61,125 nucleotides of DNA, taken from positions 1 to 61,125 of IMG/VR virus record IMGVR_UViG_3300032315_001187. The stretch is one strand, 5' to 3'. Both the position numbers and the translations under genes were made by a program. Numbering within the stretch: position 1 is the first letter of the stretch; every line of letters starts with the position of its first letter. Below the pieces are notes generated by a model. It was given only the letters and a program-made list of their open reading frames with translations. It searched no databases and had not been told where the DNA came from. This DNA is from a virus. Its lineage: Duplodnaviria > Caudoviricetes. Shown here one piece after another: positions 3,589-27,607 of this stretch.

Positions 3589-5544
3589 ATGACGTTCTCA
3601 ATCCTGGACTTCCTAGACCAGTTGGAGCCCAGTAAGGAGTCAGGCAAATTCATGTGTCCCGCATGTGGGAACAATGATTTCTCCGTCAACAAGAAAAATG
3701 GTGCCTACACCTGTTGGCATGACGACTCCCCTGCCCACCGCGCAGAGATCAGGGATGTGCTGGCTCCGATGGTGCGATGGGAAAAGCCGCCGAGGGATCC
3801 CGGCAACTACACCTTCTCCTACAGGAACCAAACCGGCTTAGAAGTGGTGAAGGTTCACCGCGACGACACCTCTGGCAACAAGCGCATCTGGCAGGAATTT
3901 CCCACCATCGACCCCACCGCTACGGGGCAGAAGACGCAACTGCAGGAGGTGAAGGCGACCATCCTTCCCTTCATGTATGAGGAGGCTATTGCTGAGAGCG
4001 CTGCCACTGGTCTTCCCATTGTCGTGGTAGAAGGCGAACTCACCTGCCAAGCCGTTTGGTCCATCGGCCTGCCTTCCGTCACCTTCCTGGGTGGCAGCAA
4101 GCAGTACCGCACCAATGGTGACTACGCCAGCCTCTTCAAGAATCAAAAGCTAGTCCTGGCCCCCGACAGGGATGAGCAGGGCGTTGCCTTCATGAAGGAA
4201 GTGGAGGCTGACAATCCTGGAGCGCAATGGCTCTATGCGGATCCACGCTCTTGGGAATGGCAGAACCTGCCCAGTGGGAATGGCCTTGACCTGGCCGACT
4301 ACATTGCTGAGGGCGTCACTAAGGACGATTTGCTTTCCTCCATCGTTTCCAAAGGTAAGCATGCTGGTAAAGACGGCAAGCCCGCATACGAGGAAATCAT
4401 TTCAACAGTGGAAGGTTTTGTTGGCCTCTATGCCAATGATGCTCGTATCACCTACGAAACTGCTAACTGGCTGGAAATGCGTGGCGTGAAGATGAGCCAG
4501 GCCAATGTTGACAAGATTATTGACGAAGCCAAGAGTCGCATTTATGGCAAAGAGGAAATTGAAACCATTGACGCCCTCACCATTGCCAACACCGAACAAT
4601 GCCGCGAATGGTTGATTGCTGGCATCATGCCCCTCGGAAGCGTGATGCTACTGGCTGCATCAGGCGGTACTGGCAAAAGCACCATCGTCTACAACTGGGC
4701 ACTCAATATCGCCCTTGGCCAACCATGGAGCGGAAGGCGCTGCTACAAAGGCAAGAGCCTGATCATTCAAAGTGATGAACCATTGGTGGACACCAGCGAA
4801 AAACTTGGCGTGATTGGCTTCAAGGAAGCTGGCCTGGAAGCTGGCACCATTGCCTTCTGGGAGAACTGGCGCTTTGGCCACATGAAGCAGCTTGAAGACT
4901 ACGTAAGGAAACATCGCCCAGCCTTTGTTGCCATTGACTCCCTCACTGCCTGTCTCGCTGGCATGGACGTGGACTTAGTGAAGAGTAATGCGGGTGACGT
5001 GATTTACGGCCTCCGGGACATTGCTAATCAATACAAATGCAGCATTATCATTCTCCACCACTTAAACAAGAGCGGCGGTCTGAGGGACTCAACAAGTTTT
5101 GTTGATAACGTGAGTGAAGTGGTTAAGCTCACTCGTGCTGAGAACAATGGCGATCCCAATCAATTTGTTCTGGAATGGTTGAAGAGCAGAAGCGGCCTCA
5201 CCGGCAAGCATAATCTGCAACGCGACACGCTGTCCTACGGCTGGCGTTATGCAGGCCCTCAAGGTGGTTCCCTGGAAGAGCTTGACCAAGTGGTGAATAC
5301 TGTCAACATGCGCAAGACTGAACGTTTCACCAAGCAACAAGTGGCGTCCATGTCTGGCACCTGGGATAACTCATCCACGGGCAAGATGCTGGAAGTTGCA
5401 CGTCGGCAAGGCTTAATCACTAGCAGCTTCGAGTTTGGTCCCAATGGGGAACGCAAGCGTCTCTATCATTCCTGGGACTACAAAGAACCAGACACTGATT
5501 TTGTGGAGGCGCCTGAAACTGTTGCCGCTCACGATTTCTTCTAA
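3589..5544 (+). CDS. Primase-helicase (Zn finger, TOPRIM, RecA-like AAA_25 ATPase)
   Basis: CPAC; VVEGE...APDRDEQG TOPRIM; Walker A ASGGTGKST, Walker B VAIDS, HHLNK. Confidence 0.9.
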   Translation: MTFSILDFLDQLEPSKESGKFMCPACGNNDFSVNKKNGAYTCWHDDSPAHRAEIRDVLAPMVRWEKPPRDPGNYTFSYRNQTGLEVVKVHRDDTSGNKRIWQEFPTIDPTATGQKTQLQEVKATILPFMYEEAIAESAATGLPIVVVEGELTCQAVWSIGLPSVTFLGGSKQYRTNGDYASLFKNQKLVLAPDRDEQGVAFMKEVEADNPGAQWLYADPRSWEWQNLPSGNGLDLADYIAEGVTKDDLLSSIVSKGKHAGKDGKPAYEEIISTVEGFVGLYANDARITYETANWLEMRGVKMSQANVDKIIDEAKSRIYGKEEIETIDALTIANTEQCREWLIAGIMPLGSVMLLAASGGTGKSTIVYNWALNIALGQPWSGRRCYKGKSLIIQSDEPLVDTSEKLGVIGFKEAGLEAGTIAFWENWRFGHMKQLEDYVRKHRPAFVAIDSLTACLAGMDVDLVKSNAGDVIYGLRDIANQYKCSIIILHHLNKSGGLRDSTSFVDNVSEVVKLTRAENNGDPNQFVLEWLKSRSGLTGKHNLQRDTLSYGWRYAGPQGGSLEELDQVVNTVNMRKTERFTKQQVASMSGTWDNSSTGKMLEVARRQGLITSSFEFGPNGERKRLYHSWDYKEPDTDFVEAPETVAAHDFF

Positions 5545-13978: not shown

Positions 13979-14254
13979 ATGAGAACTGCACCTCCTACTC
14001 CCATCGTTCCCACCATCCATCTCAATGGCACCAGCGGCCAGGATTTAAAGGCTGAGTACTATGCCGCCTATGAGGCCATTGAAGCTGCTGTAGAGGCCCT
14101 CGCAGCGGCAACCTCCAATTGTCGAGATTTTTACGTGCAAAGTGCTGATGCGTATTATCAGCATAAGGAAGAAAGGGCCGAAGCCTTTGCTAGCTTGAGA
14201 AAAGCGCAGGACTATGTAGAAGAAGTGCTGGTGGGCATTTGTAACCAACTTTAA
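13979..14254 (+). CDS. Hypothetical protein
   Basis: PTIHLNGTS...RDFY. Confidence 0.75.
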   Translation: MRTAPPTPIVPTIHLNGTSGQDLKAEYYAAYEAIEAAVEALAAATSNCRDFYVQSADAYYQHKEERAEAFASLRKAQDYVEEVLVGICNQL

Positions 14255-14276: not shown

Positions 14277-14777
14277 TTGACTACTAGGCGAGTGAAGCAC
14301 TGGAGAGGCATACCCCCGTGGCAAAGGCTATGGGGCAGTATTACAGAGGCACCAATCGATCTTTGCTGGGAATGGAAGGCAACTTCAAGGCTTAAGTCTG
14401 GTTACGGATGTCTCTCCATGAATGGCAAATCATGCTTGGCGCATCGAGCTGCTTACGAATGGGTTTTTGGCCAAATCCCTAAGGGAATGCTTGTTCGTCA
14501 CAAATGCGACAATCCCTCATGTTGCAATCCATTTCATTTGGAACTTGGCACGGATAAGGATAATTACAATGACATGATTGAAAGAGGCAGGCGTGTTTTT
14601 AACGGAGCAAAAGGAGAGCGTAATTGCAAAGCAAAACTATCTGAAGAGCAAGTGAAGAAGATTCGTGCAATGTACGAAGCTGGCGGAGAATCTACAAATA
14701 CTTTGGCGCGCAAATTTGATGTGACCCAGGCATTGATTAGCCAGATTGTTCTGCGCAAGATCTGGAGACACGTTTGA
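14277..14777 (+). CDS. HNH endonuclease with C-terminal DNA-binding helix domain
   Basis: CWEW..GYG..AHR...VRHKCDNPSCCNPFHL..GT..DN..DM; AKLSEEQV. Confidence 0.9.
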   Translation: MTTRRVKHWRGIPPWQRLWGSITEAPIDLCWEWKATSRLKSGYGCLSMNGKSCLAHRAAYEWVFGQIPKGMLVRHKCDNPSCCNPFHLELGTDKDNYNDMIERGRRVFNGAKGERNCKAKLSEEQVKKIRAMYEAGGESTNTLARKFDVTQALISQIVLRKIWRHV

Positions 14778-14881: not shown

Positions 14882-15241
14882 ATGGCCATCATTAACCACA
14901 CTGTTGAGCAGATCGCTCCAAACCTCGATTCCTACACCAAGTTCGAGGGGCTAGAGCGCCTTGATTTCAAAGTGGTGCTGCCTGACTTTGCCGAGCCCTT
15001 CCCCGCGAACGTGCGCAACGGCTATCCCCAGCATCTGCTCCGCACGCTTGAAATGCACGGTCTGCTGCACGTGTGCCACCGTTGGTATATCAATGGGCCA
15101 GTGAGGGGCGAGTGGACTATTTCCACTATGGTGGGACCCATCACTGTTCCCGGTGGCACTCGCATTATCTCCGAAGAAGTGCCCTCCACCATGAAGGCCA
15201 TTAAAAAGCCAGCCTCTCTTGGTAAGCGCATCTGGGACTAA
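14882..15241 (+). CDS. Hypothetical protein
   Basis: accATG at 14882 after the repeated promoter. Confidence 0.7.
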   Translation: MAIINHTVEQIAPNLDSYTKFEGLERLDFKVVLPDFAEPFPANVRNGYPQHLLRTLEMHGLLHVCHRWYINGPVRGEWTISTMVGPITVPGGTRIISEEVPSTMKAIKKPASLGKRIWD

Positions 15242-15257
15242 TCATAAAATATTACAA

Positions 15258-15282
15258 AGGGGCCATAAGGCCCCTCTTATTC
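15258..15282 (+). terminator. Putative terminator hairpin
   Basis: AGGGGCC-ataa-GGCCCCT then a pyrimidine run. Confidence 0.55.
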
Positions 15283-15292
15283 CTTCCAAACC

Positions 15293-15484
15293 ATGATTCT
15301 TGTTGATTTCTTTTCCCATCGTTCCTGTTTAGGCACAGAACTTATTGAAGGATGGTATTGGTATGAAGACGATGGGGAAGAAAGTGGTGGGCCTTTTGAT
15401 GATGAAGAAGATGCTACTTTTGCTGCGCAATTAGGAGAAAAATCTAGGCCGCATGAAGATTTTACTTTTCCTTTCAAACGATGA
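15293..15484 (+). CDS. Small acidic hypothetical protein
   Basis: GWYW...GPFDDEEDA. Confidence 0.7.
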   Translation: MILVDFFSHRSCLGTELIEGWYWYEDDGEESGGPFDDEEDATFAAQLGEKSRPHEDFTFPFKR

Positions 15485-15573
15485 AGGGACTTGCTCAAAG
15501 GCGGTAAGGACTTGCCAGAAAGCGGTAAGGGACTTGCTGGGAAACGGTATGGGGACTTGCTGAAAGACGGTAT
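15485..15573. repeat. Four imperfect 21-23 bp tandem repeats (GGACTTGC-N7-CGGTA)
   Basis: GACTTGC at 15488, 15509, 15531, 15554. Confidence 0.85.
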
Positions 15574-15612
15574 AGAGCGCTAGCGCTAAAGGCCGCCGCC
15601 GCCCGCTGCTGC

Positions 15613-15660
15613 TAGTACGCTTGTACCATAGTACACACATACTATAGTACGTTTGTACTA
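15613..15660. promoter_or_regulatory. Three abutting 16-bp cyanobacterial LexA-box-like palindromes
   Basis: TAGTACGCTTGTACCA, TAGTACACACATACTA, TAGTACGTTTGTACTA. Confidence 0.7.
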
Positions 15661-15661
15661 T

Positions 15662-15854
15662 ATAAGCAAAACTTATCATTCCGGGCTGAATCATAAGCTC
15701 AGCTTATACTATAAGCCCAGCTTATCAATCGGGCCTCAATCATAAGCCTGGCTTATTATATAAGCCCAGCTTATCTTTCACGAGCAAACCATAGTCCCTG
15801 CTTATTTTATAAGCTCAGTTTATGGTTTGAGAATAAACCATAAGCTGCGCTAAT
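15662..15854. repeat. Eight ATAAG-N5-CTTAT palindromes on a 49-bp period (LysR-type T-N11-A)
   Basis: Starts 15662, 15693, 15711, 15742, 15760, 15791, 15809, 15840. Confidence 0.85.
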
Positions 15855-15987
15855 TATAAAGAATTGTTAAGATTTTAGGGTTGGGCCGTGTTAACGGGCC
15901 CACCGTGGGCACAATGGGCGAGACAACGGGCAGGCCGGATGCGCCGCCCTTGTCAAGTCCTTCTCTGTCCCCTCGCTACTTCTCCCA

Positions 15988-16575
15988 ATGCTCGCTTCTC
16001 TCCATGCCCTGCAGGGCCTCGAGGCCCTCGCTCTCACCGCCGCCCGTATCTGGGCCGCCGCTGGTGAACTGCTAACCGCCGGAGCGATCCTATGGGCCCT
16101 GGATGCCCTCGCCCGATCAATCCGCCTCGCCTATTCAATGGGCCGCACCATGGGCCGCCTTCTCTGGCCCGTCCTCCATGCTCTCGCGGCTGGTGGCCGG
16201 TGGTTCGCCGCCCACATCGACTGGGCAGAGGTGGCCGCCGTGGTGGTTGACTGCTTAAAGGCCCTGGCTGTGCTCTGCTGGCTGGTGGCTGTTGAGGGCC
16301 GCCGCCTCCTTATCTCCGCCTCCGCCGATATGGGCCGCCGTTACTCCGCCGCCCTCGCTCCTTCTCTGCCGGTGGTGGTGGCCTCCGCTCCCTCCGCTCC
16401 CTCCGCTCTGCCCGTTGCCCCTCTGCTGGTGGTGGTGGATCCCTCTCCCCATCCTCTCGCCGTGGTGGCCGCTTCGCTTGAGGCCCTCACTTGTAAGGAA
16501 CTCCGGGCCCTTACCGGCACCCGCCGGAAACTACCCAAGGCCTCGCTGGTGGCCCTCGCCCTCGCCCTCGCTTAA
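15988..16575 (+). CDS. Hydrophobic protein with C-terminal Rho_N/SAP-like helix motif
   Basis: Ala/Leu-rich; LEALTCKELRALTG...KASLV. Confidence 0.65.
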   Translation: MLASLHALQGLEALALTAARIWAAAGELLTAGAILWALDALARSIRLAYSMGRTMGRLLWPVLHALAAGGRWFAAHIDWAEVAAVVVDCLKALAVLCWLVAVEGRRLLISASADMGRRYSAALAPSLPVVVASAPSAPSALPVAPLLVVVDPSPHPLAVVAASLEALTCKELRALTGTRRKLPKASLVALALALA

Positions 16576-16638
16576 TTGTAAAGAATTGTAACGATGGGGG
16601 CCGCCCGTGCTGGTGGCCTCCCTCGCCCGTGCCATGCT
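16575..16638 (+). promoter_or_regulatory. Promoter with a perfect HLR1 element
   Basis: Reverse complement GTTACAAT-TC-TTTACAAT, 41 nt before CATGCT. Confidence 0.6.
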
Positions 16639-16688
16639 CTCCATGCCGGAGCGATCCGGCCCAACCGTCAACCACCGCACCGCTCTTC

Positions 16689-17816
16689 ATGGCCTCCGCC
16701 CTCGCCTCCGCTCCCTCCGCCCTCTCCTCTGCTGATCGTGCCGCCTTTAGGGCCGCTGATGCCCCTGCTAAGGCCCACCTCGCCCGGTTCGGCCTGACGC
16801 TTGAGGGCCTGCTAACCGTGGGGGCCTCCAATGCGAAACTAGCCAAGGGGGCCGCTCAGGCCCGCGCCGTGATTCTGCACCACTTACCGGCCCGCTCCCT
16901 CTCCCAGGCGGTCTATGGTGCCGCCGCCGGCCCTACTGCCCCGCGCTCTCGCATTGATGGTTTGGAGGCCCTCGCCCTCCGGAATGAAATAGGCGGGCTA
17001 GTGGGCTCCCATGATGGGTGCCCGTGGAAGTCGGCAGGCTGTGAAAACGGCTGCCTCGCATGGGCTGGGCACGGTGGCATCAGTAGCACCGTGGCATCCT
17101 GCAGGGCCCGCCGGACCATGGCTTTCATCTACAACCCCGGCGGCTACGCTGTGGCTGTGCTGTGGGCGATTGCCCGCGAATACAAAAAGGCACAAGCCCA
17201 GAGCCTCCCTCTTGCGGTTCGCCTCCGGGGAACGGATGATCTCCCTTGGCACGAGCTCCGATTCACTCTCTACGCTGACGAGGCCCGCGCCATGGCCCAC
17301 CGTTACGGGCTGCCCGTGGTGCCGGGCCTGGGAACCACCATCCCCGAGGCCCTCGCTTTGGTGCCTGGTTTGGAACAATACGAATATTCCAAGGCTCCCC
17401 TAGAGGGCCCCTACGGTCTCAGAGCGCAACGGGCCGCCGGAGTTGATACCACCGCCTCCCTTGCTGCTGATCGCCCTCAAGGCCTCGCCCGTAGCCTTGA
17501 GGCCGTGGCTGCAGGGTTCCGCCTCGCCGTTCCCGCAGGGTTCCCCAAGGGTTCCGCCCTTCCCTCCGCTCTCCTTCTCCGGGCCGATAGCGTCTCGCCC
17601 GTGGTTCGCCTCGCCTGCCTTGATGGTGACGTGACGGATCACCGCTGGGCCGATCCCCAAGGGCCGCAGGGCCTGGTTTGGGATGGCGTGGCTGTGATCC
17701 TGCGGACTAAGCGCTCCGCTGGTGCTGGGGCCGCCTCCAAGGCTTTCAGCCTCTCGCCCGTGGTGGGAGAGTGGCAGGCCCTCGCTGGTGGTGGCCTCGC
17801 CCAGTGGGAGGCCTGA
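16689..17816 (+). CDS. Gp88-family phage protein
   Basis: NAKLAKG, CPWKSAGCENGCL..AG.G, VRLRGTDD, YEYSK, DGDVTDHR motifs. Confidence 0.7.
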   Translation: MASALASAPSALSSADRAAFRAADAPAKAHLARFGLTLEGLLTVGASNAKLAKGAAQARAVILHHLPARSLSQAVYGAAAGPTAPRSRIDGLEALALRNEIGGLVGSHDGCPWKSAGCENGCLAWAGHGGISSTVASCRARRTMAFIYNPGGYAVAVLWAIAREYKKAQAQSLPLAVRLRGTDDLPWHELRFTLYADEARAMAHRYGLPVVPGLGTTIPEALALVPGLEQYEYSKAPLEGPYGLRAQRAAGVDTTASLAADRPQGLARSLEAVAAGFRLAVPAGFPKGSALPSALLLRADSVSPVVRLACLDGDVTDHRWADPQGPQGLVWDGVAVILRTKRSAGAGAASKAFSLSPVVGEWQALAGGGLAQWEA

Positions 17817-17819
17817 GCA

Positions 17820-18059
17820 GTGGGGCCCTCTCGCTTCCATGGCACCCGCCGCATTGTTCGCCTCGCCCTTCTCCGCCCTCCCTCCCATGCTCCGCTGGTG
17901 GGGGCCGCCCGTTATAAGGTCTGGCCCTCCCGCCCCGTGGGCCATCGTGATTCTCGCTCCCTTCTCCTCCGCCTCCCTGGTGGCCGCCTTCTCCGCCTTC
18001 TCTATCGGACTGCCACAACCACGGCCCAGCAGATCCGCCGCCTGGGTCTGGTGGACTGA
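17820..18059 (+). CDS. Hypothetical basic protein (frame uncertain)
   Basis: GTG just after the upstream stop; an alternative frame is also open. Confidence 0.4.
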   Translation: MGPSRFHGTRRIVRLALLRPPSHAPLVGAARYKVWPSRPVGHRDSRSLLLRLPGGRLLRLLYRTATTTAQQIRRLGLVD

Positions 18060-18113
18060 TCGCCTCTCCCAGGGCCCCTCTCCCTCTCCCTCTCCCCTCC
18101 GCTCTCCCTCTCC

Positions 18114-18416
18114 ATGACCTCCCTCTCGGTTCCCTTCTCTCCCCTCGCCTCCCGTGGTTCCGCCCTGCGATCAGTGGGCCTGTCCCCTCACCTTCCGCCG
18201 CCCTCGCCCTACCGCCTACACTCCGCCGCCTCCGCCCATCGCCTCGCCTCTCCCGTGGCTGATCTGCTCGCCCAACGGTGGGCCTCCGTTGTGATCCGCC
18301 TGGGCCCCGATGCGTTCAACGACTGGGCAGATCGGGCCCTCCCTGAGCTGGTGGCCACTGGTGGGGCCTTCGCTACTCTCCGCTGGCTACTAGCAGAGGG
18401 GCCAGCCGATTATTAA
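18114..18416 (+). CDS. Hypothetical protein
   Basis: ccATG after a pyrimidine tract; ends just before the next promoter. Confidence 0.55.
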   Translation: MTSLSVPFSPLASRGSALRSVGLSPHLPPPSPYRLHSAASAHRLASPVADLLAQRWASVVIRLGPDAFNDWADRALPELVATGGAFATLRWLLAEGPADY

Positions 18417-18519
18417 GAAAAGTAACAATGGGGGCGGCTGGTGGTTGACCGCCTCGCCCTGGGGCCCATAATGGTTGCAAGCCCGGAGCGATCCGGGCCG
18501 CCCTCCGCTACTGTCTCCC

Positions 18520-18699
18520 GTGATTGCCTACAACACCCCGACCAAGACTTGGATTGTTACCGCCCCTAACGGCTTTGGCCTAATGGAGCAGATCGGGCAC
18601 GATCACCCCACCGAGAGGGCCGCTCTCGCCGCCCTCGCCCGCCTCCGCCGCCCTCAAGCTGGACGCATTGAGACCGTCACCCGCACTTACAGGGCCTGA
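18520..18699 (+). CDS. Hypothetical protein
   Basis: GTG 18520 after a TTGACC/CATAAT promoter and GCGA hairpin. Confidence 0.6.
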   Translation: MIAYNTPTKTWIVTAPNGFGLMEQIGHDHPTERAALAALARLRRPQAGRIETVTRTYRA

Positions 18700-18761
18700 T
18701 CGCCCAGGGCCCCCATCGGGGCCCTCTCCTTCTCCTTACAATCCCCTCCGCTCTGCTCTCC

Positions 18762-18929
18762 ATGCTCTCCCTCTTTATCCGCCGCCCTTGTTTCGTGGCT
18801 GGTGGCCTCGCTGCCGCCGCTCTCCTCTCCCTCGGTGCCGCCCTCCATGCTCAAGATCGGGCCCTTCTCAAGGCCTGCCTGGCAGGGCCGGAGCCCGCAG
18901 CCTGCCATCTCCGCCTCTATGGGCGGTGA
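18762..18929 (+). CDS. Small membrane/secreted protein (55 aa)
   Basis: MLSLFIRRPCFVAGGLAAAALLSLGAALHAQDRALLKACLAGPEPAACHLRLYGR. Confidence 0.55.
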   Translation: MLSLFIRRPCFVAGGLAAAALLSLGAALHAQDRALLKACLAGPEPAACHLRLYGR

Positions 18930-19044
18930 TGGCCCTAGGGCCCCCCATGGGCCCTCTCCTCTCCTCTGCAGTCACTAGGCCTTAGGGCCGCCCGCCAACA
19001 CCGTCACAGCTCCGCCTAGGGGCCGTAGGCTGTCTTCGTTATTC

Positions 19045-19073
19045 AAGGCCTCCCGTAGTGGGGGCCTTTCTTT
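19045..19073 (+). terminator. Intrinsic terminator
   Basis: AAGGCCTCCC/GGGGGCCTTT then CTTT. Confidence 0.7.
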
Positions 19074-19146
19074 ATGCTTGGCAAGGGGGATAATCTTTAA
19101 ACCCGACCCCTGCGGTAGGGAATAAATAGCGCCTAACAGTAGGCAT

Positions 19147-19173
19147 AAAGAAAGGGGCCCCGATTAGGGCCCC
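19147..19173 (-). terminator. Intrinsic terminator
   Basis: GGGGCCC/GGGCCCC stem with a U tract on the minus strand, after 19185..19325. Confidence 0.7.
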
Positions 19174-19184
19174 ATTGTTGTTAG

Positions 19185-19325
19185 TTACTCGTCGTCTAGT
19201 TTGGTTAATTTATTGAGTAGAATGTCGCATCGTTTGAGTGTGTCTTGAATGTCGCGGTTGAGTTCATCATCCCGCTGTTTCAATTCATCTAACATAGCGG
19301 CAAACGTGTCAGCTATAACGCCCAT
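19185..19325 (-). CDS. Small coiled-coil protein (46 aa)
   Basis: MGVIADTFAAMLDELKQRDDELNRD...; has its own terminator. Confidence 0.6.
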   Translation of the reverse strand: MGVIADTFAAMLDELKQRDDELNRDIQDTLKRCDILLNKLTKLDDE

Positions 19326-19684
19326 AGTGATTGTGGGGTAGTTTGAATAACGAACTGGTCGCCCAGTCCGCACCCCATTTTACACTAACTGCGCACAGTG
19401 TCAAGTTAACTTAACAACACTTAACATAAGATATCCTGATCGTTCCCATAAGCAATCCTTATCTGATCGTGATCCGTATCCGTATGGAGCAGTAACCCGG
19501 ATCCGTATCCGCATCCAGAGGGGCCTATCCCCCAAAAAATGCGACACCATTTTTCATCCGGTTTTTACCCTTTTTTCTCGCACGTCCGTATATTTACCAA
19601 CGTGTTCGTAATTGTCACCAATTGCGCGTAAAGCTAGTCGCGGCTGCGCGAACGGTCGAGCATGGACGATGGGAAGTGAGCGCA

Positions 19685-20200
19685 TTAAAACTCTAATGAT
19701 CTAACAATTGCTTCGCCCACTGCTTTTGTTACAAGCTTTAGTTCCTCGTGCGTGGCATTATTTTTAATTGTATTTGCTTTATAACTAATAATCCATACAT
19801 TGCCTTTAATGTAACCTTTCGTGGGATCTATGCGATCCAATGAGGGGCTGTTAGCAATCACGCCCTTTCCCTGCAAAGTTGACCACTCAAGAGGAATTCC
19901 CAATACTGGACAACGCGCGACTATAAGGGAGCGCACGTATTCCCCGTCAATATTAAATTCCAAGTGTTTTCTTTTTGCTCTATTTCTAGCGTCGCTTACC
20001 ATCGCACTCGTCTGAATTCTTACTGGATTTGCTTTGACGTATTTATTTTTTCTCTTGTGTTCACATTCTTTACAATAAGACCGAAGACCATCTTTCGCCC
20101 GTGAGCGCTTATAAAAAGCTGTCAATGGCAACTCTTCGCCACATTTTCGGCATCGCTTAGTCAGTACAACGTCTCTTAGAGAAGCAGTAATGTCAGGCAT
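19685..20200 (-). CDS. HNH-type endonuclease with N-terminal Zn finger
   Basis: CRKC...CKEC; CPVLG...SLDRID..KGY..GNV......N..K. Confidence 0.85.
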   Translation of the reverse strand: MPDITASLRDVVLTKRCRKCGEELPLTAFYKRSRAKDGLRSYCKECEHKRKNKYVKANPVRIQTSAMVSDARNRAKRKHLEFNIDGEYVRSLIVARCPVLGIPLEWSTLQGKGVIANSPSLDRIDPTKGYIKGNVWIISYKANTIKNNATHEELKLVTKAVGEAIVRSLEF

Positions 20201-21872: not shown

Positions 21873-22013
21873 TTATTGTTACAATTCTTTTCCCATCGCC
21901 TCTAGCGTGACCAACGTTAGGGGCTTTTCCATGGATGCCGTTTTATTGGCCAGGGAAATGCTAGGGTGATGCCGTTGATCGTTTGGGGGGCCTGGCGCCC
22001 CTTTTGTTGTCTC

Positions 22014-23453
22014 ATGAATCTCAAGGAAAGCGCAAAGTGCGACAAAGTGGCTCGCACTGGCAGAGTTGAAAGTTGGATGGAAGATCCCCAGGGGCGCCTG
22101 CCCGTTAGCTGTGCGGTGATCGTCGTAGAAGACTCCATGGAAGGGAAAGATGGCATTGAAGCATCGTGGCGCTTTGTCTCCCATGGTCTTCGCAACGGTG
22201 CTGGCGTAGCAGTGCATCTTTCCAAGCTGCGTCCCAAGGGCGAAGAAAATGGTAAGGGTCTTACAGCTTCTGGTCCATGCTCATTCGGAAAAATCTATTC
22301 CACCCTGAATGAAATTCTTCGCCGTGGGGGGAAATTTAAGAACGGGGCCGTGGTGCTCCATCTTGATTACGATCACCCCGATGCCATGGAATTTGTCTCC
22401 ATGGAACGCAAAGAGCTTCAATGGGCAAAGCGGGCAATTAATGTTGATGAACAATTCTTCGAGCGCACGTCTCCCGAATTTCGTGCCGCACTAATTAAGA
22501 GCATTGCCAATGGTGATGTGTGGCTGGTTAAGAAAAAATACAATGCCAAGGGCGAGCGCGTTTATTTTCAAGTGTGCCTTGAAGTGGCAATGCCTTCCCG
22601 TGGCACTTGTTTGCTTGAGCATGTCAACATGGGCGCGTGTTCTATCGAAGAAGTTGAGGAAGCGTTTGTTGAAGGGATGACTGAACTATGTGAGCTTCAT
22701 GCTCGCACGGGTGTGGGTGATACTGGTGAATACCTCAGCCACGATGAAGATAAGCAAGTCGGTCTTGGCATGCTTGGACTAGCCAATTTTCTTGCCATTC
22801 ATGAGGTTTCTTACGAAGATTTTGGCGAGGCTCTTGATGCGTTTTTAATAGACGATCCACATCCTTGGGCTCATTATTGGACGGATACCGTGGCCGGGGA
22901 AGCCGTCTACGCCTTGTACAACGGCATTAACAGTGCTGCTGGCATTGCTCGTAAGCATGGCATGGAACGTGCATTTGCCATTGCTCCCACTGCCTCATGC
23001 TCTTATCGCTATCTGGATGCTCGTGGTTTTACTACGGCTCCTGAAATTGCTCCTCCCATCGCCCGTCTTGTAGATCGCGATAGCGAAACAATGGGTGTGG
23101 AGAGGTTTGAATATGGTCCAGTGGAGATTGCCGAGGAAGTGGGCTGGGAAACGTTCCGTAAAGTGGCTGATGGCATTTGCCAGTTACTTGAACGCACTGG
23201 ATTGTTTCATGGTTATTCTGCAAATTGGTGGTCTGATTTAGTTACCTGTGATGAAACTTTTATCAGGCAATGGTTAGATAGTCCGCAAACTTCTATTTAT
23301 TATGCACTGCAAGTTCAAAGCGGCACCCAATCCAAGGACGATGTTGGAGTAGAATTAGGAGAGACTCTGACCAGCTTCTTTGGGCTGGAAGATAAAGATC
23401 AGGACCAGTCTGATCTTATTGATACAGGCTTTTGTGCGGCCTGCGCGGAGTAA
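22014..23453 (+). CDS. nrdA: Ribonucleotide reductase large subunit, cyanophage (Cyano SP) type
   Basis: RTGRV..W, RLPVSC, GAGVAVHLS, xVCLE, IAPTASCSY, YY dyad, C-terminal CAAC. Confidence 0.92.
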   Translation: MNLKESAKCDKVARTGRVESWMEDPQGRLPVSCAVIVVEDSMEGKDGIEASWRFVSHGLRNGAGVAVHLSKLRPKGEENGKGLTASGPCSFGKIYSTLNEILRRGGKFKNGAVVLHLDYDHPDAMEFVSMERKELQWAKRAINVDEQFFERTSPEFRAALIKSIANGDVWLVKKKYNAKGERVYFQVCLEVAMPSRGTCLLEHVNMGACSIEEVEEAFVEGMTELCELHARTGVGDTGEYLSHDEDKQVGLGMLGLANFLAIHEVSYEDFGEALDAFLIDDPHPWAHYWTDTVAGEAVYALYNGINSAAGIARKHGMERAFAIAPTASCSYRYLDARGFTTAPEIAPPIARLVDRDSETMGVERFEYGPVEIAEEVGWETFRKVADGICQLLERTGLFHGYSANWWSDLVTCDETFIRQWLDSPQTSIYYALQVQSGTQSKDDVGVELGETLTSFFGLEDKDQDQSDLIDTGFCAACAE

Positions 23454-25740: not shown

Positions 25741-27120
25741 TTATCGAATGAGACTATCTATCCAATGAAGATCGTCGTCCTTTGAGGCTTGTAAGATTGC
25801 GGCTGCCATGGCAAATGCATAGTCATCCACGCCCACTTCCTTGCCGCCACTAATTGACCATTGTCCTGATGCTTTATACACCACGCTTAGATTTTTAAGC
25901 TGCTTAATCGCCTTCTCATGGTTGTAAATATCTACGAGGCCAGCATTAAACAATTCTTTCATCTTGCTGAATGCTTTCATCTTGCTGCTGACGGACCAAG
26001 TGAGTTCTTCAATGGGGAAATCAGCGGCAAGGGATTGAATGGTGGCGGAACTGTTGTATTGGTCAAGCACAATGCTGTCAAAATTGTAAAGTTTATGGTG
26101 CTCTCGTATCCAATCCTCTACTGCCTGAATACTCACTTCCTTTTTCCCATTGATCTCAAAATCTGCAAGGAACGTGTGGAACTTATCCACCACTAGCGTT
26201 TCGCCATCAAAATGCACAATACATGCCGTGTAGTCATCTCGTCCCACGCCCCCGCGAGCAGGGTCAAGCGCCAGCACGTATTTGCCATGGAAGTGAACTG
26301 ATGGTGGCAGCAAGCTCCTGTGTTTGTTGATTGCTGCATCTACCACTTCAGAGGCCAGCAGCGCTGACATGTTACGAGCAAATTGCGCTCCATATTCAAT
26401 CATGAACTTATCCGGGTCCCGCTTACGTTCTGCCTGCATGAAGGCACAGTCGTAAGGCAATTCAGGGTTCATCTCCCACGTGGGAGTGTTTACTGGCTGC
26501 ATAAAGGGAAACTCCCCACTGGTAGCCTCGCAGAAATGCTGGTAGAACAGACCGTCAGTGAGCCATGGCGAAGAGAGTTCCAGGATGCGACCATGATTGC
26601 CGAACTGAGCAATGGACGGCGATAGTGCGTCGTAGATAGCTTTTGCGCCAGCGTTGGCATCGCCTTCCTGACTGAAGGCAAGCTCGTCCATAATGATTGC
26701 CGCCACAGCACGACCACGAGATGCACGAGCACTGCTGGAGATGGCCCTAAACACACAACCATTGCTTATTTCAAGCGTGTCAGTGGTTTCCCTTACGATT
26801 TCCTGAGCAAAGGGACTTTCAACAATCAATCCGCGAATGGTGTTGAGGGCAATCTTTGCCTGGTCAATACCGTTGGCAATGGTGCAAATGTACCAACTCT
26901 CTCCTTTGCGAATCTTGCGTTTGTATTTTTCCTCTAGAACAAAGCAGATGTAGGTGCAGGCAACTGCTGCCATGAGCGTCTTGCCAGATCGTCGGCCCAG
27001 CGCCCACACTGCATGAGTCTTTCCCCCATGGAAAAATTCATCGAGAATATCAGCCTGCTTTTCCCATAGCGGGAGCTTTAGCGCATGCCGCGCAAAGTCC
27101 GAACATTTAATTACTGCCAT
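25741..27120 (-). CDS. terL: Terminase large subunit
   Basis: Walker A GRRSGKT, Walker B IIMDE, SSP coupling motif, RNase H-like LALDP...DD and C-terminal DD. Confidence 0.92.
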   Translation of the reverse strand: MAVIKCSDFARHALKLPLWEKQADILDEFFHGGKTHAVWALGRRSGKTLMAAVACTYICFVLEEKYKRKIRKGESWYICTIANGIDQAKIALNTIRGLIVESPFAQEIVRETTDTLEISNGCVFRAISSSARASRGRAVAAIIMDELAFSQEGDANAGAKAIYDALSPSIAQFGNHGRILELSSPWLTDGLFYQHFCEATSGEFPFMQPVNTPTWEMNPELPYDCAFMQAERKRDPDKFMIEYGAQFARNMSALLASEVVDAAINKHRSLLPPSVHFHGKYVLALDPARGGVGRDDYTACIVHFDGETLVVDKFHTFLADFEINGKKEVSIQAVEDWIREHHKLYNFDSIVLDQYNSSATIQSLAADFPIEELTWSVSSKMKAFSKMKELFNAGLVDIYNHEKAIKQLKNLSVVYKASGQWSISGGKEVGVDDYAFAMAAAILQASKDDDLHWIDSLIR

Positions 27121-27607
27121 TGAGAGTGCTCATCGGCATCAATGCCGTTTTGGGAACAAAATATGCTGGTCTACCGCCAGCGGGATCGGACCAATATTGT
27201 TCTTTCATTGCATCCTTGCCACGAATCCAGCCATGAATGACGGTTTTCTTGTCTTGAATGGTGACAAGAACAAATTTCTTATTGGGACTTTCGTTCTTTT
27301 GCACGATTAAATCATAACTATGGCGACTGCGGGTTTTCACATCTATGCCGGGCAGATCGCAGGAACCACGCTTGGCCTCGGTTTCTTTATAAAGAAATTC
27401 TTTAAGACCAAGATACGAAGCAACTGCCATTTCCCCTGCGGCGCCCAACAAGTGAATGGTGAGAGCCATTGCTCCCGTTGCTACTCCCCCATTGCGCCCC
27501 TTGAGTCCCCGTATTTCGTTAATTGCTTGCCTGCGGAAGGCTTCCTTGCAGGCCGCTTTGCGTTCTTCCTCGGTAAAGACGAATTCAATGGGGAGAGTGG
27601 GGGCCAT
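27107..27607 (-). CDS. PD-(D/E)XK-like protein
   Basis: GAAGEMAVA..L...D....DVKT. Confidence 0.6.
   Translation of the reverse strand: MAPTLPIEFVFTEEERKAACKEAFRRQAINEIRGLKGRNGGVATGAMALTIHLLGAAGEMAVASYLGLKEFLYKETEAKRGSCDLPGIDVKTRSRHSYDLIVQKNESPNKKFVLVTIQDKKTVIHGWIRGKDAMKEQYWSDPAGGRPAYFVPKTALMPMSTLNGSN

Follow-up and report, generated by a model that had tools for sequence, protein, structure and literature searches.

Does a dense, one-stranded cluster of a famous recombination octamer in a cyanophage genome mean that the octamer is at work there? The question is raised by the IMG/VR virus record IMGVR_UViG_3300032315_001187, a linear record of 61,125 bases with a completeness estimate of 85%, which was analysed at its full length (hereafter, the window). 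Within 2.6 kb of it lie ten copies of GCTGGTGG, the Chi site of the Escherichia coli RecBCD enzyme, all on the + strand. The answer that we favour, with middling confidence, is that the cluster is largely a by-product of coding and base composition, a real over-representation but most likely no working Chi array, and that presumably no protein reads the octamer. We prefer this reading because codon pairs demonstrably make such clusters, because we found neither conservation nor a supporting host signal, and because the window was flagged precisely for containing a famous word.

The contig is that of an S-CBS4-like cyanosiphovirus of about 49% G+C, its head genes having 75% DNA identity to Synechococcus phage S-CBS4, and its recognisable genes include those for the portal, terminase, ribonucleotide reductase, primase-helicase, an exonuclease and a Sak annealase.

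The ten copies and their frames

The first-pass annotation had reported ten exact + strand copies, lying in different reading frames and in two cases between genes (16609 and 18437), with near matches besides and nothing on the opposite strand, and all of this was recovered: the ten sites stand at the positions given below, the - strand holds none between 15880 and 19080, and the island has 13 one-mismatch variants on the + strand against 1 on the -. On the open reading frame (ORF) calls, five copies lie in the Leu-Val frame xxG-CTG-GTG-Gxx (16281, 16425, 16545, 17894 and 18347), three in the Ala-Gly-Gly frame GCT-GGT-GGN (16189, 17784 and 18798) and two are intergenic. For the rest of the window, the same annotation had counted by eye about six more + strand copies, all of them Ala-Gly-Gly, and here it fell short: there are seven on the + strand and one on the - (7931), and while six of the seven are indeed Ala-Gly-Gly in long ORFs, the seventh, at 14227, reads GTG-CTG-GTG-GGC, the Leu-Val frame, at a gene end.

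All ten clustered copies fall inside a high-G+C island with sharp edges, where G+C steps from about 49% to 67% (at 15880 and 19080) and the sense strand is rich in pyrimidines. The island and the sites are listed here with their state in two related loci, L001 and L058, that are described further on; g1 to g6 are the ORFs of the island.

15880 to 19080 (3.2 kb), + strand: high-G+C island, 67% G+C by composition profiles (C 39%, G 28%, T 21%, A 12%)
16189 to 16196, + strand: site 1, GCT-GGT-GGC (Ala-Gly-Gly), in g1; identical in L001
16281 to 16288, + strand: site 2, tgG-CTG-GTG-Gct (Trp-Leu-Val-Ala), in g1; identical in L001
16425 to 16432, + strand: site 3, ctG-CTG-GTG-Gtg, in a hypervariable Pro/Ala/Ser/Val linker of g1; region unalignable in L001
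16545 to 16552, + strand: site 4, tcG-CTG-GTG-Gcc (Ser-Leu-Val-Ala), in g1; identical in L001
16609 to 16616, + strand: site 5, intergenic, in a promoter/leader module
17784 to 17791, + strand: site 6, GCT-GGT-GGT, in g2
17894 to 17901, + strand: site 7, ccG-CTG-GTG-Ggg, in g3; ACTGGTGG in L001 and GCCCGTAG in L058
18347 to 18354, + strand: site 8, gaG-CTG-GTG-Gcc, in g4; GCTTGTGG in L001 and GCTAGTCG in L058, both synonymous differences
18437 to 18444, + strand: site 9, intergenic, adjoining the -35-like TTGACC (18445-18450) of a promoter-like TTGACC-16-CATAAT; GCTAGTGG in L001 and in L058
18798 to 18805, + strand: site 10, GCT-GGT-GGC, in g6; unalignable in L001 and L058

Chance and coding controls

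In the window as a whole there are 18 exact copies, against a mean of 2.64 (standard deviation 1.37) in dinucleotide shuffles, none of which reaches 18 in 100, and the strand split is 17:1, or 10:0 in the island. Markov simulations trained on the island expect 0.09, 0.17, 0.50 and 2.16 copies at orders 0, 1, 2 and 3, and at each of these orders 0 of 1000 simulations reach 10. Order 4 (4.8 expected; 25 of 1000 reach 10) and order 5 (8.1 expected; 299 of 1000) were rejected as nulls for the island, being largely circular, since the motif copies themselves supply the hexamers. Shuffling synonymous codons within the island genes leads one to expect 0.63 coding sites against the 8 seen, and with the two intergenic sites held fixed no shuffle in 3000 exceeds a total of 6. 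A codon-pair-aware shuffle, which keeps the probability of each codon given its residue and the next residue, raises the island expectation from 0.63 to 2.95. Elsewhere this same shuffle leaves a weak excess, both in the backbone (6 against 2.32; 18 of 1000 reach 6) and in S-CBS4 (10 against 5.96; 48 of 1000 reach 10). The comparison with a shuffled expectation that the first-pass annotation had proposed therefore comes out above every non-circular shuffle, whether Markov, synonymous or codon-pair-aware: the count is real, octamer-exact and higher than any non-circular null.

The octamer is not alone in its behaviour, as many other words of the island are also repeated and one-stranded (for instance GCCCTCGC and CCTCGCCC, each 12 times with 0 on the other strand).

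Codon pairs as a source of one-stranded clusters

The cluster would most likely have formed, for the greater part, in the following way: (i) proteins of low complexity, rich in Ala, Leu, Val and Gly, would have been encoded on one strand of a fast-evolving, word-repetitive and G+C-rich island; (ii) the octamer is spelled by either of two codon pairs that are in favour there, CTG-GTG (Leu-Val) and GCT-GGT (Ala-Gly); (iii) two more copies stand in paralogous promoter/leader modules; (iv) and finally, the leftover excess of about 5 sites would be in part a matter of ascertainment, the window having been picked for a famous word.

The codon-pair bias on which this depends is general, not peculiar to the island. 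In the backbone, Ala before Gly is GCT in 37 of 54 pairs (next codon not G-initial), while GCT makes up 36% of Ala codons; in the island the corresponding figures are 8 of 15 pairs and 26% overall.

Each of the two frames by itself, moreover, makes polar clusters elsewhere. S-SZBM1 (NC_070839.1), an unrelated T4-like cyanomyovirus with the same host as S-CBS4, has a strand split of 27:0, and all 12 of the sites checked (out of the 27) are Ala-Gly-Gly (GCT-GGT-GG) in Gly-rich tail genes, where GGT accounts for 66% of Gly codons; between 19669 and 21712 it has seven same-strand copies in 2 kb, in three Gly-rich genes of tail-fibre-assembly type. On the host side, the comparison was made with a candidate host family of 41 picocyanobacterial genomes, reached via a contig of a cyanobacterial metagenome-assembled genome (MAG) with a GP88 homologue (L028). 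In the chromosome of one of its members, G023 (1.56 Mb sampled), the densest same-strand runs have 9 and 8 copies within 2.6 kb and sit in genes of polytopic membrane proteins (Wzy_C, an undecaprenyl-phosphate translocase-like gene and an SNF transporter), and in another, G034 (400 kb), the Leu-Val frame (CTG-GTG) alone accounts for 186 of 199 coding-strand copies. As the clusters of S-SZBM1 and of host-type genomes come from single codon frames, polarity and clustering alone do not argue for function. The likeness to the window thus lies in the strong polarity and in the local packing (7 in 2 kb; 8-9 in 2.6 kb), and the difference in that one frame covers all or most of the copies checked (12/12; 186/199), while the island combines two frames with non-coding copies. 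Against these cases the window stands out in that its copies occur in more than one frame, that two of them are non-coding and that codons rare in the island are used.

The island, its genes and its relatives

The island contains six + strand ORFs, four of which (all but g1 and g2) matched no family. Those that bear sites, together with the leader module, are as follows.

15988 to 16575, + strand: g1, 195 aa, Ala/Leu/Val-rich, of a phage-only family; bears the sites at 16189, 16281, 16425 and 16545
16573 to 16688, + strand: promoter/leader module, intergenic; a AATTGTAAAGAATTGTAAC direct-repeat box, then site 5 (16609-16616), then a CCGGAGCGATCCGG hairpin motif
16689 to 17816, + strand: g2, GP88 family, the conserved anchor gene of the island, with an alternative GTG start at 16629; bears site 6
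17820 to 18059, + strand: g3, putative 79-aa ORF, picked by its third-position C bias; bears site 7
18114 to 18416, + strand: g4, 100-aa ORF; bears site 8
18762 to 18929, + strand: g6, 55-aa ORF with a hydrophobic N-terminus; bears site 10

Three of the g1 sites lie in peptide motifs whose conservation has to do with the protein: the contexts LAAGGRWF, CWLVAVEG and (S/E)LVALALA are kept in at least 20 relatives, whereas the linker that bears site 3 is variable in the protein alignment. Although g1 matched no Pfam or PHROG family, it has 91 homologues at E<=0.001, several on contigs of 66-77 kb, and the protein search gave about 20 at 71-88% identity. The leader module at 16573-16688 is nearly invariant between the window and L001, and has paralogues at 15851-15987 and 18407-18518 (direct-repeat family D9).

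Relatives were compared at 19 IMG/VR loci found via GP88 (L001-L019), to which L058 was added by a scan of JGI metagenomes. The island is syntenic in all 19, each of which has a block of 63-72% G+C at the same place around the GP88 gene, and for this reason it counts as an old, maintained module of this phage group, and not as a recent insertion. Even between lineages that share only about 65% DNA identity, and in phage backbones of about 50% G+C, the GP88 module keeps its 63-72% G+C and so forms a maintained compositional island.

The octamer cluster, on the other hand, is restricted to L001 and L002, which represent one phage type (93% protein identity) and have 7 copies each on the + strand and 0 on the -. 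The other 17 loci comprise 4 with a single + site, 2 with - sites only and 11 with none, and scans of IMG/VR with g1 and with the g1 alignment returned L001 and L002 once more, plus two distant loci without sites. Word repetition, by contrast, is a property of these GP88 islands in general. Those of L003-L019 occupy the same genome place, contain the same anchor gene, have the same 63-72% G+C with a sense strand rich in C, and likewise repeat octamers in one orientation, but their repeated words are different ones, namely CCCTGGCC (11-12 times), CCCTGCCC (13 times, in L016), GGCTGATC (5 times) and CCTTTCCT (9 times), with 0-1 copies of GCTGGTGG on the + strand.

When the window is aligned with L001 (3014 columns, 82% identity), five of its ten sites prove identical, three are one base off and two unalignable, and L001 has two private sites. 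In the co-linear part 5 of 9 sites are kept, against 36% of all octamers (p = 0.19), so that sites are kept no better than other octamers, and there is no sign in these alignments of purifying selection on them. L058, a contig of 1.8 kb that is 95% identical in the C-terminal half of GP88, has 0 of the 5 window sites that it spans, several of the differences being synonymous. The pattern seen in L001 and L058 is compatible with rapid neutral turnover or with recent accumulation in the window's own line.

A number of observations fit poorly with a mere by-product of coding. GCTGGTGG is the top-ranked octamer of the island under synonymous shuffles (8 against 0.63; 0 of 2000), and its 8 coding sites also stand above the 2.95 of the strictest shuffle built (0 of 1000 reach 8). 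CTG-GTG follows a codon with G in third position (TGG, CTG, TCG, CCG, GAG) 5 times out of 6, other CTG codons only 2 times out of 22; G precedes 10 of 13 CTGGTGG and follows 10 of 12 GCTGGTG, and the octamer, beyond the codon pair alone, looks like the unit. Ala-Gly-Gly is written with GCT-GGT in 3 of 3 cases, though GCC makes up 63% of island Ala codons. Leu is CTC in 67 of 130 island codons (52%), yet CTG in 7 of 9 before Val, which means that the island's own codon usage does not favour GCTGGTGG, and sister islands with heavy CTG use hold none. Two of the ten sites are non-coding, and the cultured relative S-CBS4 has a split of 11:2, its copies lying in two frames and, in one case, outside the + strand genes.

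Could a host RecBCD read the octamer?

One alternative is a Chi-type signal. According to this explanation, which we consider unlikely even though it fares best among the alternatives, the RecBCD of the picocyanobacterial host would read GCTGGTGG or a close variant, and the ten co-oriented copies, accumulated in this lineage, would almost certainly switch an enzyme travelling right to left from degradation to RecA loading, as in P1, LLS and MD8. It would account for the strict polarity (10:0 and 17:1), the several frames and intergenic placement with octamer-exact boundaries, the excess over codon-pair-aware shuffles, and the apparent acquisition of sites, compared with L001 and L058, through one-base and often synonymous changes, for instance at 18437, where both relatives read GCTAGTGG in place of GCTGGTGG. 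S-CBS4 is likewise enriched: its + strand genes contain 10 copies where 2.79 are expected, a number that shuffling within genes did not reach in any of 1000 shuffles.

A fuller version, to which we would give slightly less credit still, supposes that the RecBCD of some estuarine or freshwater picocyanobacteria uses GCTGGTGG as its Chi, or as a polar control sequence resembling one, the octamer being that of E. coli although the RecC has diverged widely, and that S-CBS4-like siphoviruses would have accumulated it; the island would then be a ten-site, one-way barrier among early genes, at which nuclease would become recombinase before reaching the regulatory and replication region.

The first-pass annotation had named a host without RecBCD as a finding that would speak against a Chi, and this did not arise in the host family, since RecC (PF04257) passes the Pfam cut-off in 37 of the 41 genomes. 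This agrees with the account, in the part of PMC5101192 used here, of marine Prochlorococcus and Synechococcus carrying an E. coli-like recBCD. The octamer is also very common in the large, high-G+C members of the family, with up to 2106 copies in 2.9 Mb, in comparison with which the 1008 per 4.6 Mb of E. coli (figure from PMC12315714) are sparser. It occurs 308 times per 400 kb in G034 and 770 times per 1.56 Mb in G023, which places it at ranks 33-35 among octamers; such ranks are no objection, as the accepted Chi of Pseudomonas aeruginosa is given in the part of the same paper drawn on here as only the 43rd commonest octamer (PMC12315714).

The statistics of the host-type genomes nevertheless do not single the octamer out. 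Its ratio of observed to expected copies in the 400 kb of G034 is 6.4 under a first-order model (M1), 1.37 under M3 and 0.94 under the maximal-order M6, that is, its sub-words predict it. The 199 coding copies there exceed both the 128.5 of synonymous shuffles (1.55x, a rank of 101 among octamers) and the 154 of codon-pair-aware ones (1.29x), on crude gene calls of our own (250 ORFs covering 71% of the DNA), and this excess counts for the Chi-type signal as the rank and the single frame count against it. GCTGGTGG is the most strand-skewed abundant word of G034 (189:119), tied with GCTGCTGG. In G023 (78 samples of 20 kb from a chromosome of 3.85 Mb) the splits in the two GC-skew arms are 162:154 and 98:115, but no octamer is polar in these arms (best z about 4 among 5004 word pairs), so that this test of polarity is without positive control or power.

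With regard to the enzyme itself, the RecC of G034 matches that of E. coli at E 3e-59 in two stretches. W70 and R186 are, in the portion of PMC4614115 that we draw on, among the Type I Chi-recognition mutants of E. coli RecC (PMC4614115). When aligned with chain C of 1W36, the RecC of G034 has R at W70 and L at R186, in an alignment of low identity with an indel near R186; these Chi-contact residues are accordingly not conserved in it. Handa et al. 2012 reportedly count Q38, T40 and Q44 among the specificity residues as well. They align to N, W and R in the RecC of G034. Motifs of the E. coli type are described, in the part of the source available for this comparison, as occurring mostly in Enterobacteriaceae and not in most Proteobacteria (10.1101/2020.08.13.249359), and our literature search for GCTGGTGG together with cyanobacteria returned no description of a cyanobacterial Chi, a cyanobacterial repair paper citing the octamer only as the E. 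coli site. The resemblance to the E. coli system is therefore one of an identical octamer and of a RecC in the candidate host family, set against a divergent host-type RecC. Taken together, these proxies for a host response are mixed and lean against the octamer being read by the host enzyme; as far as genome comparison goes, they would lower, without removing, the chance that a cyanobacterial enzyme reads the same word.

Comparison with Chi-rich phages

The phages that would provide the precedent are LLS, 71 further Rec-less lambdoid phages, P1 and the Pseudomonas phage MD8, all Chi-rich (Zheng et al., Genome Res 2025, PMC12315714). In the part of that study used here, their Chi sites are abundant, nearly all active for RecBCD entering at the right end and concentrated near that end, and this abundance is tied to the lack of a phage Rec module, lambdoid phages with their own class of exonuclease and annealase being mostly without Chi (PMC12315714). 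By the orientation rule of the enzyme, a + strand 5'-GCTGGTGG-3' needs a RecBCD moving from right to left (PMC12315714).

The window resembles these phages in several respects, to judge from the same part of the study: many octamers of a host type, nearly all on one strand (20/23 in LLS, 32/32 in MD8), copies clustered in one part of the genome, an octamer among the commonest words of the phage, frequent near-miss variants, and sites that come and go between relatives (PMC12315714). As in that class, the octamer is far above expectation and on one strand (17:1 in the window, 10:0 in the island). Unlike them, the window has a recombination module of its own; no RecBCD inhibitor was identified, though one may be present.

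486 to 2938, - strand: phage recombination module, with a PD-(D/E)XK exonuclease at 486-1250 (phrog_298, E 7.9e-44, and PF12705) and a Sak-type single-strand annealing protein at 1988-2938 (phrog_8492, E 1.5e-42, and PF06378)

Other differences are that the Chi of their hosts is known by experiment; that the cluster of the window is packed in 2.6 kb of a high-G+C island and does not extend across the right-hand fifth of the genome; and that the ends of the window are those of an assembled contig. Hence the idea of the first-pass annotation that the phage would use the octamer to attenuate degradation has no anchor. Among public runs the stretch was found in one study (4 runs, all in the form of contigs, one of which, X1, may be the source of the window), none of them with visible molecule ends, and no RNA run was listed for it. 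In the S-CBS4 record, which opens at rnr, the place of the island would be only a few kb from the right end, which counts in favour of a Chi, although the start of a record is perhaps not a physical end. The terminase genes (25741-27607, - strand), including TerL (25741-27120, - strand), lie about 7 kb from the island. An island adjoining the terminase as a "terminal shield" was rejected, since the ORF at 21966-23453 is the ribonucleotide reductase; in Pfam, neither TerL nor the putative TerS matched a family.

To this must be added, against a Chi-type signal, that the cluster is missing from 17 of the 19 related loci and from L058, and that S-SZBM1 shows how Ala-Gly-Gly codons by themselves (all 12 sites checked) can produce a split of 27:0.

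Other readings of the cluster

The octamer could also be a polar signal of another kind, a DNA site for a phage or host protein (translocase-orienting or regulatory) or, all copies being on the sense strand, a word read in the mRNA. The shuffle, rank and preceding-G statistics favour it as much as they do a Chi; in addition, one intergenic copy adjoins a -35-like hexamer, the other stands in the leader that hardly varies between L001 and the window, and the phage has a second, stronger and non-polar octamer, CAATGGCA (36 copies against 4.9 expected), which makes selection on DNA words in this phage plausible. No candidate reader is known, however, the sites are dispersed through 2.6 kb of coding DNA with no fixed place relative to genes, and close relatives do without them; Rfam gave for 15000-20000 only 4 matches, all weak and far under the gathering score, and the KOPS-type CCCTNCCC/GGGNAGGG shows no enrichment in the window (8 copies where 6.8 are expected, 1 of them in the island). 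We judge such a signal improbable.

Least probable of all is a spread without selection, in which recombination or gene conversion would recently have brought in the island, or patches of it, from host-type DNA or from other copies in the island itself, and the word with them: host-type DNA does have GCTGGTGG once per 1.3-2 kb, some site pairs share a longer context (families D6, D16 and D18, 77-79% over 19-26 nt), and the island is hypervariable and breaks assemblies, 4 of the 19 related contigs ending in it and co-occurring strains differing by indels, but g1 and g2 are phage families, the Leu codon of the island is CTC, unlike the CTG of host-type DNA, the flanks of most sites differ, the changes relative to relatives are single bases, and no host genome has the island, a recent host origin having been rejected because among some 185,579 species genomes GP88 was found in none by protein scan and in 2, on short MAG contigs, by alignment. 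The island DNA had no blastn match among 50,697 phage records.

Implications

If GCTGGTGG were the true Chi of picocyanobacteria, no Chi would have been known before it from any cyanobacterium, it would imply either convergence on the E. coli word or its retention across a very wide distance, and it would extend to cyanophages the strategy by which a phage borrows the Chi of its host; for this question the cultured S-CBS4, with Synechococcus sp. CB0101 as its host, offers a ready pair. If the cluster is mostly a by-product of coding, as we judge more likely, it is a warning case, in that co-oriented clusters of a famous octamer arise readily where CTG-GTG or GCT-GGT pairs are common, and the significance that plain synonymous shuffles give them is about five-fold too high by the measure of codon-pair-aware shuffles.

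Further features of the region

The GP88 gene, g2, matches PF17338 (E 3.4e-6; 27.5 bits against a cut-off of 24.4) and phrog_1617 (E 8.5e-21). Among 8000 scored sequences it has 538 homologues at E<=0.001, two of them at 85-89% identity, and its relatives, which number in the hundreds, are in many cases on viral contigs of 55-107 kb. Its AlphaFold2 (AF2) model has a pLDDT of 83.6 and a pTM of 0.85, and none of its 201 matches in the PDB reaches E<=0.001, so the comparison gives no functional lead. In 27 aligned sequences the protein has invariant Cys/His-rich motifs, HxGCPW..GC..GCLAWAGHGG, RGTDD..H and DGD..D.R.

Three promoter-like boxes of the AATTGTAAAGAATTGTAAC type (15851-15873, 16573-16595 and 18407-18429) stand ahead of g1, g2 and g5, and about 70 nt after two of them comes CCGGAGCGATCCGG (16646-16659 and 18482-18495), with a shorter GGAGCGATCC within g1 at about 16081. 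In contigs of relatives from three co-occurring runs of one study, and likewise in L001, 18500 is joined directly to 18744, without g5; around 18500-18744 the island was assembled as many short, divergent contigs. A terminator-like hairpin at 19045-19068 closes the island. Directly to its left there are four tandem units of 49 nt (15661-15856; family D1), each with two ATAAGC-N3/4-GCTTAT palindromes, and palindromic TAGTAC-type boxes (I1) at 15628-15661. The region is flanked by free-standing genes of the HNH/endonuclease VII type (14277-14777, + strand; 19685-20200, - strand), both missing from L001, the closest relative, where the flanks are otherwise co-linear; mobile homing endonucleases are probably what they encode.

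Outside the island no octamer is commoner than CAATGGCA/TGCCATTG, with 18 + 18 copies in the window against 4.9 +/- 2.5 expected, a number that 0 of 100 shuffles reach. It has no wider consensus and no copy in the island, occurs on both strands across the backbone (for example at 4929, 8516, 20123, 47724 and 60436), and is not enriched in host-type genomes; in S-CBS4 there are 6 + 14 copies against 2.8 expected per strand.

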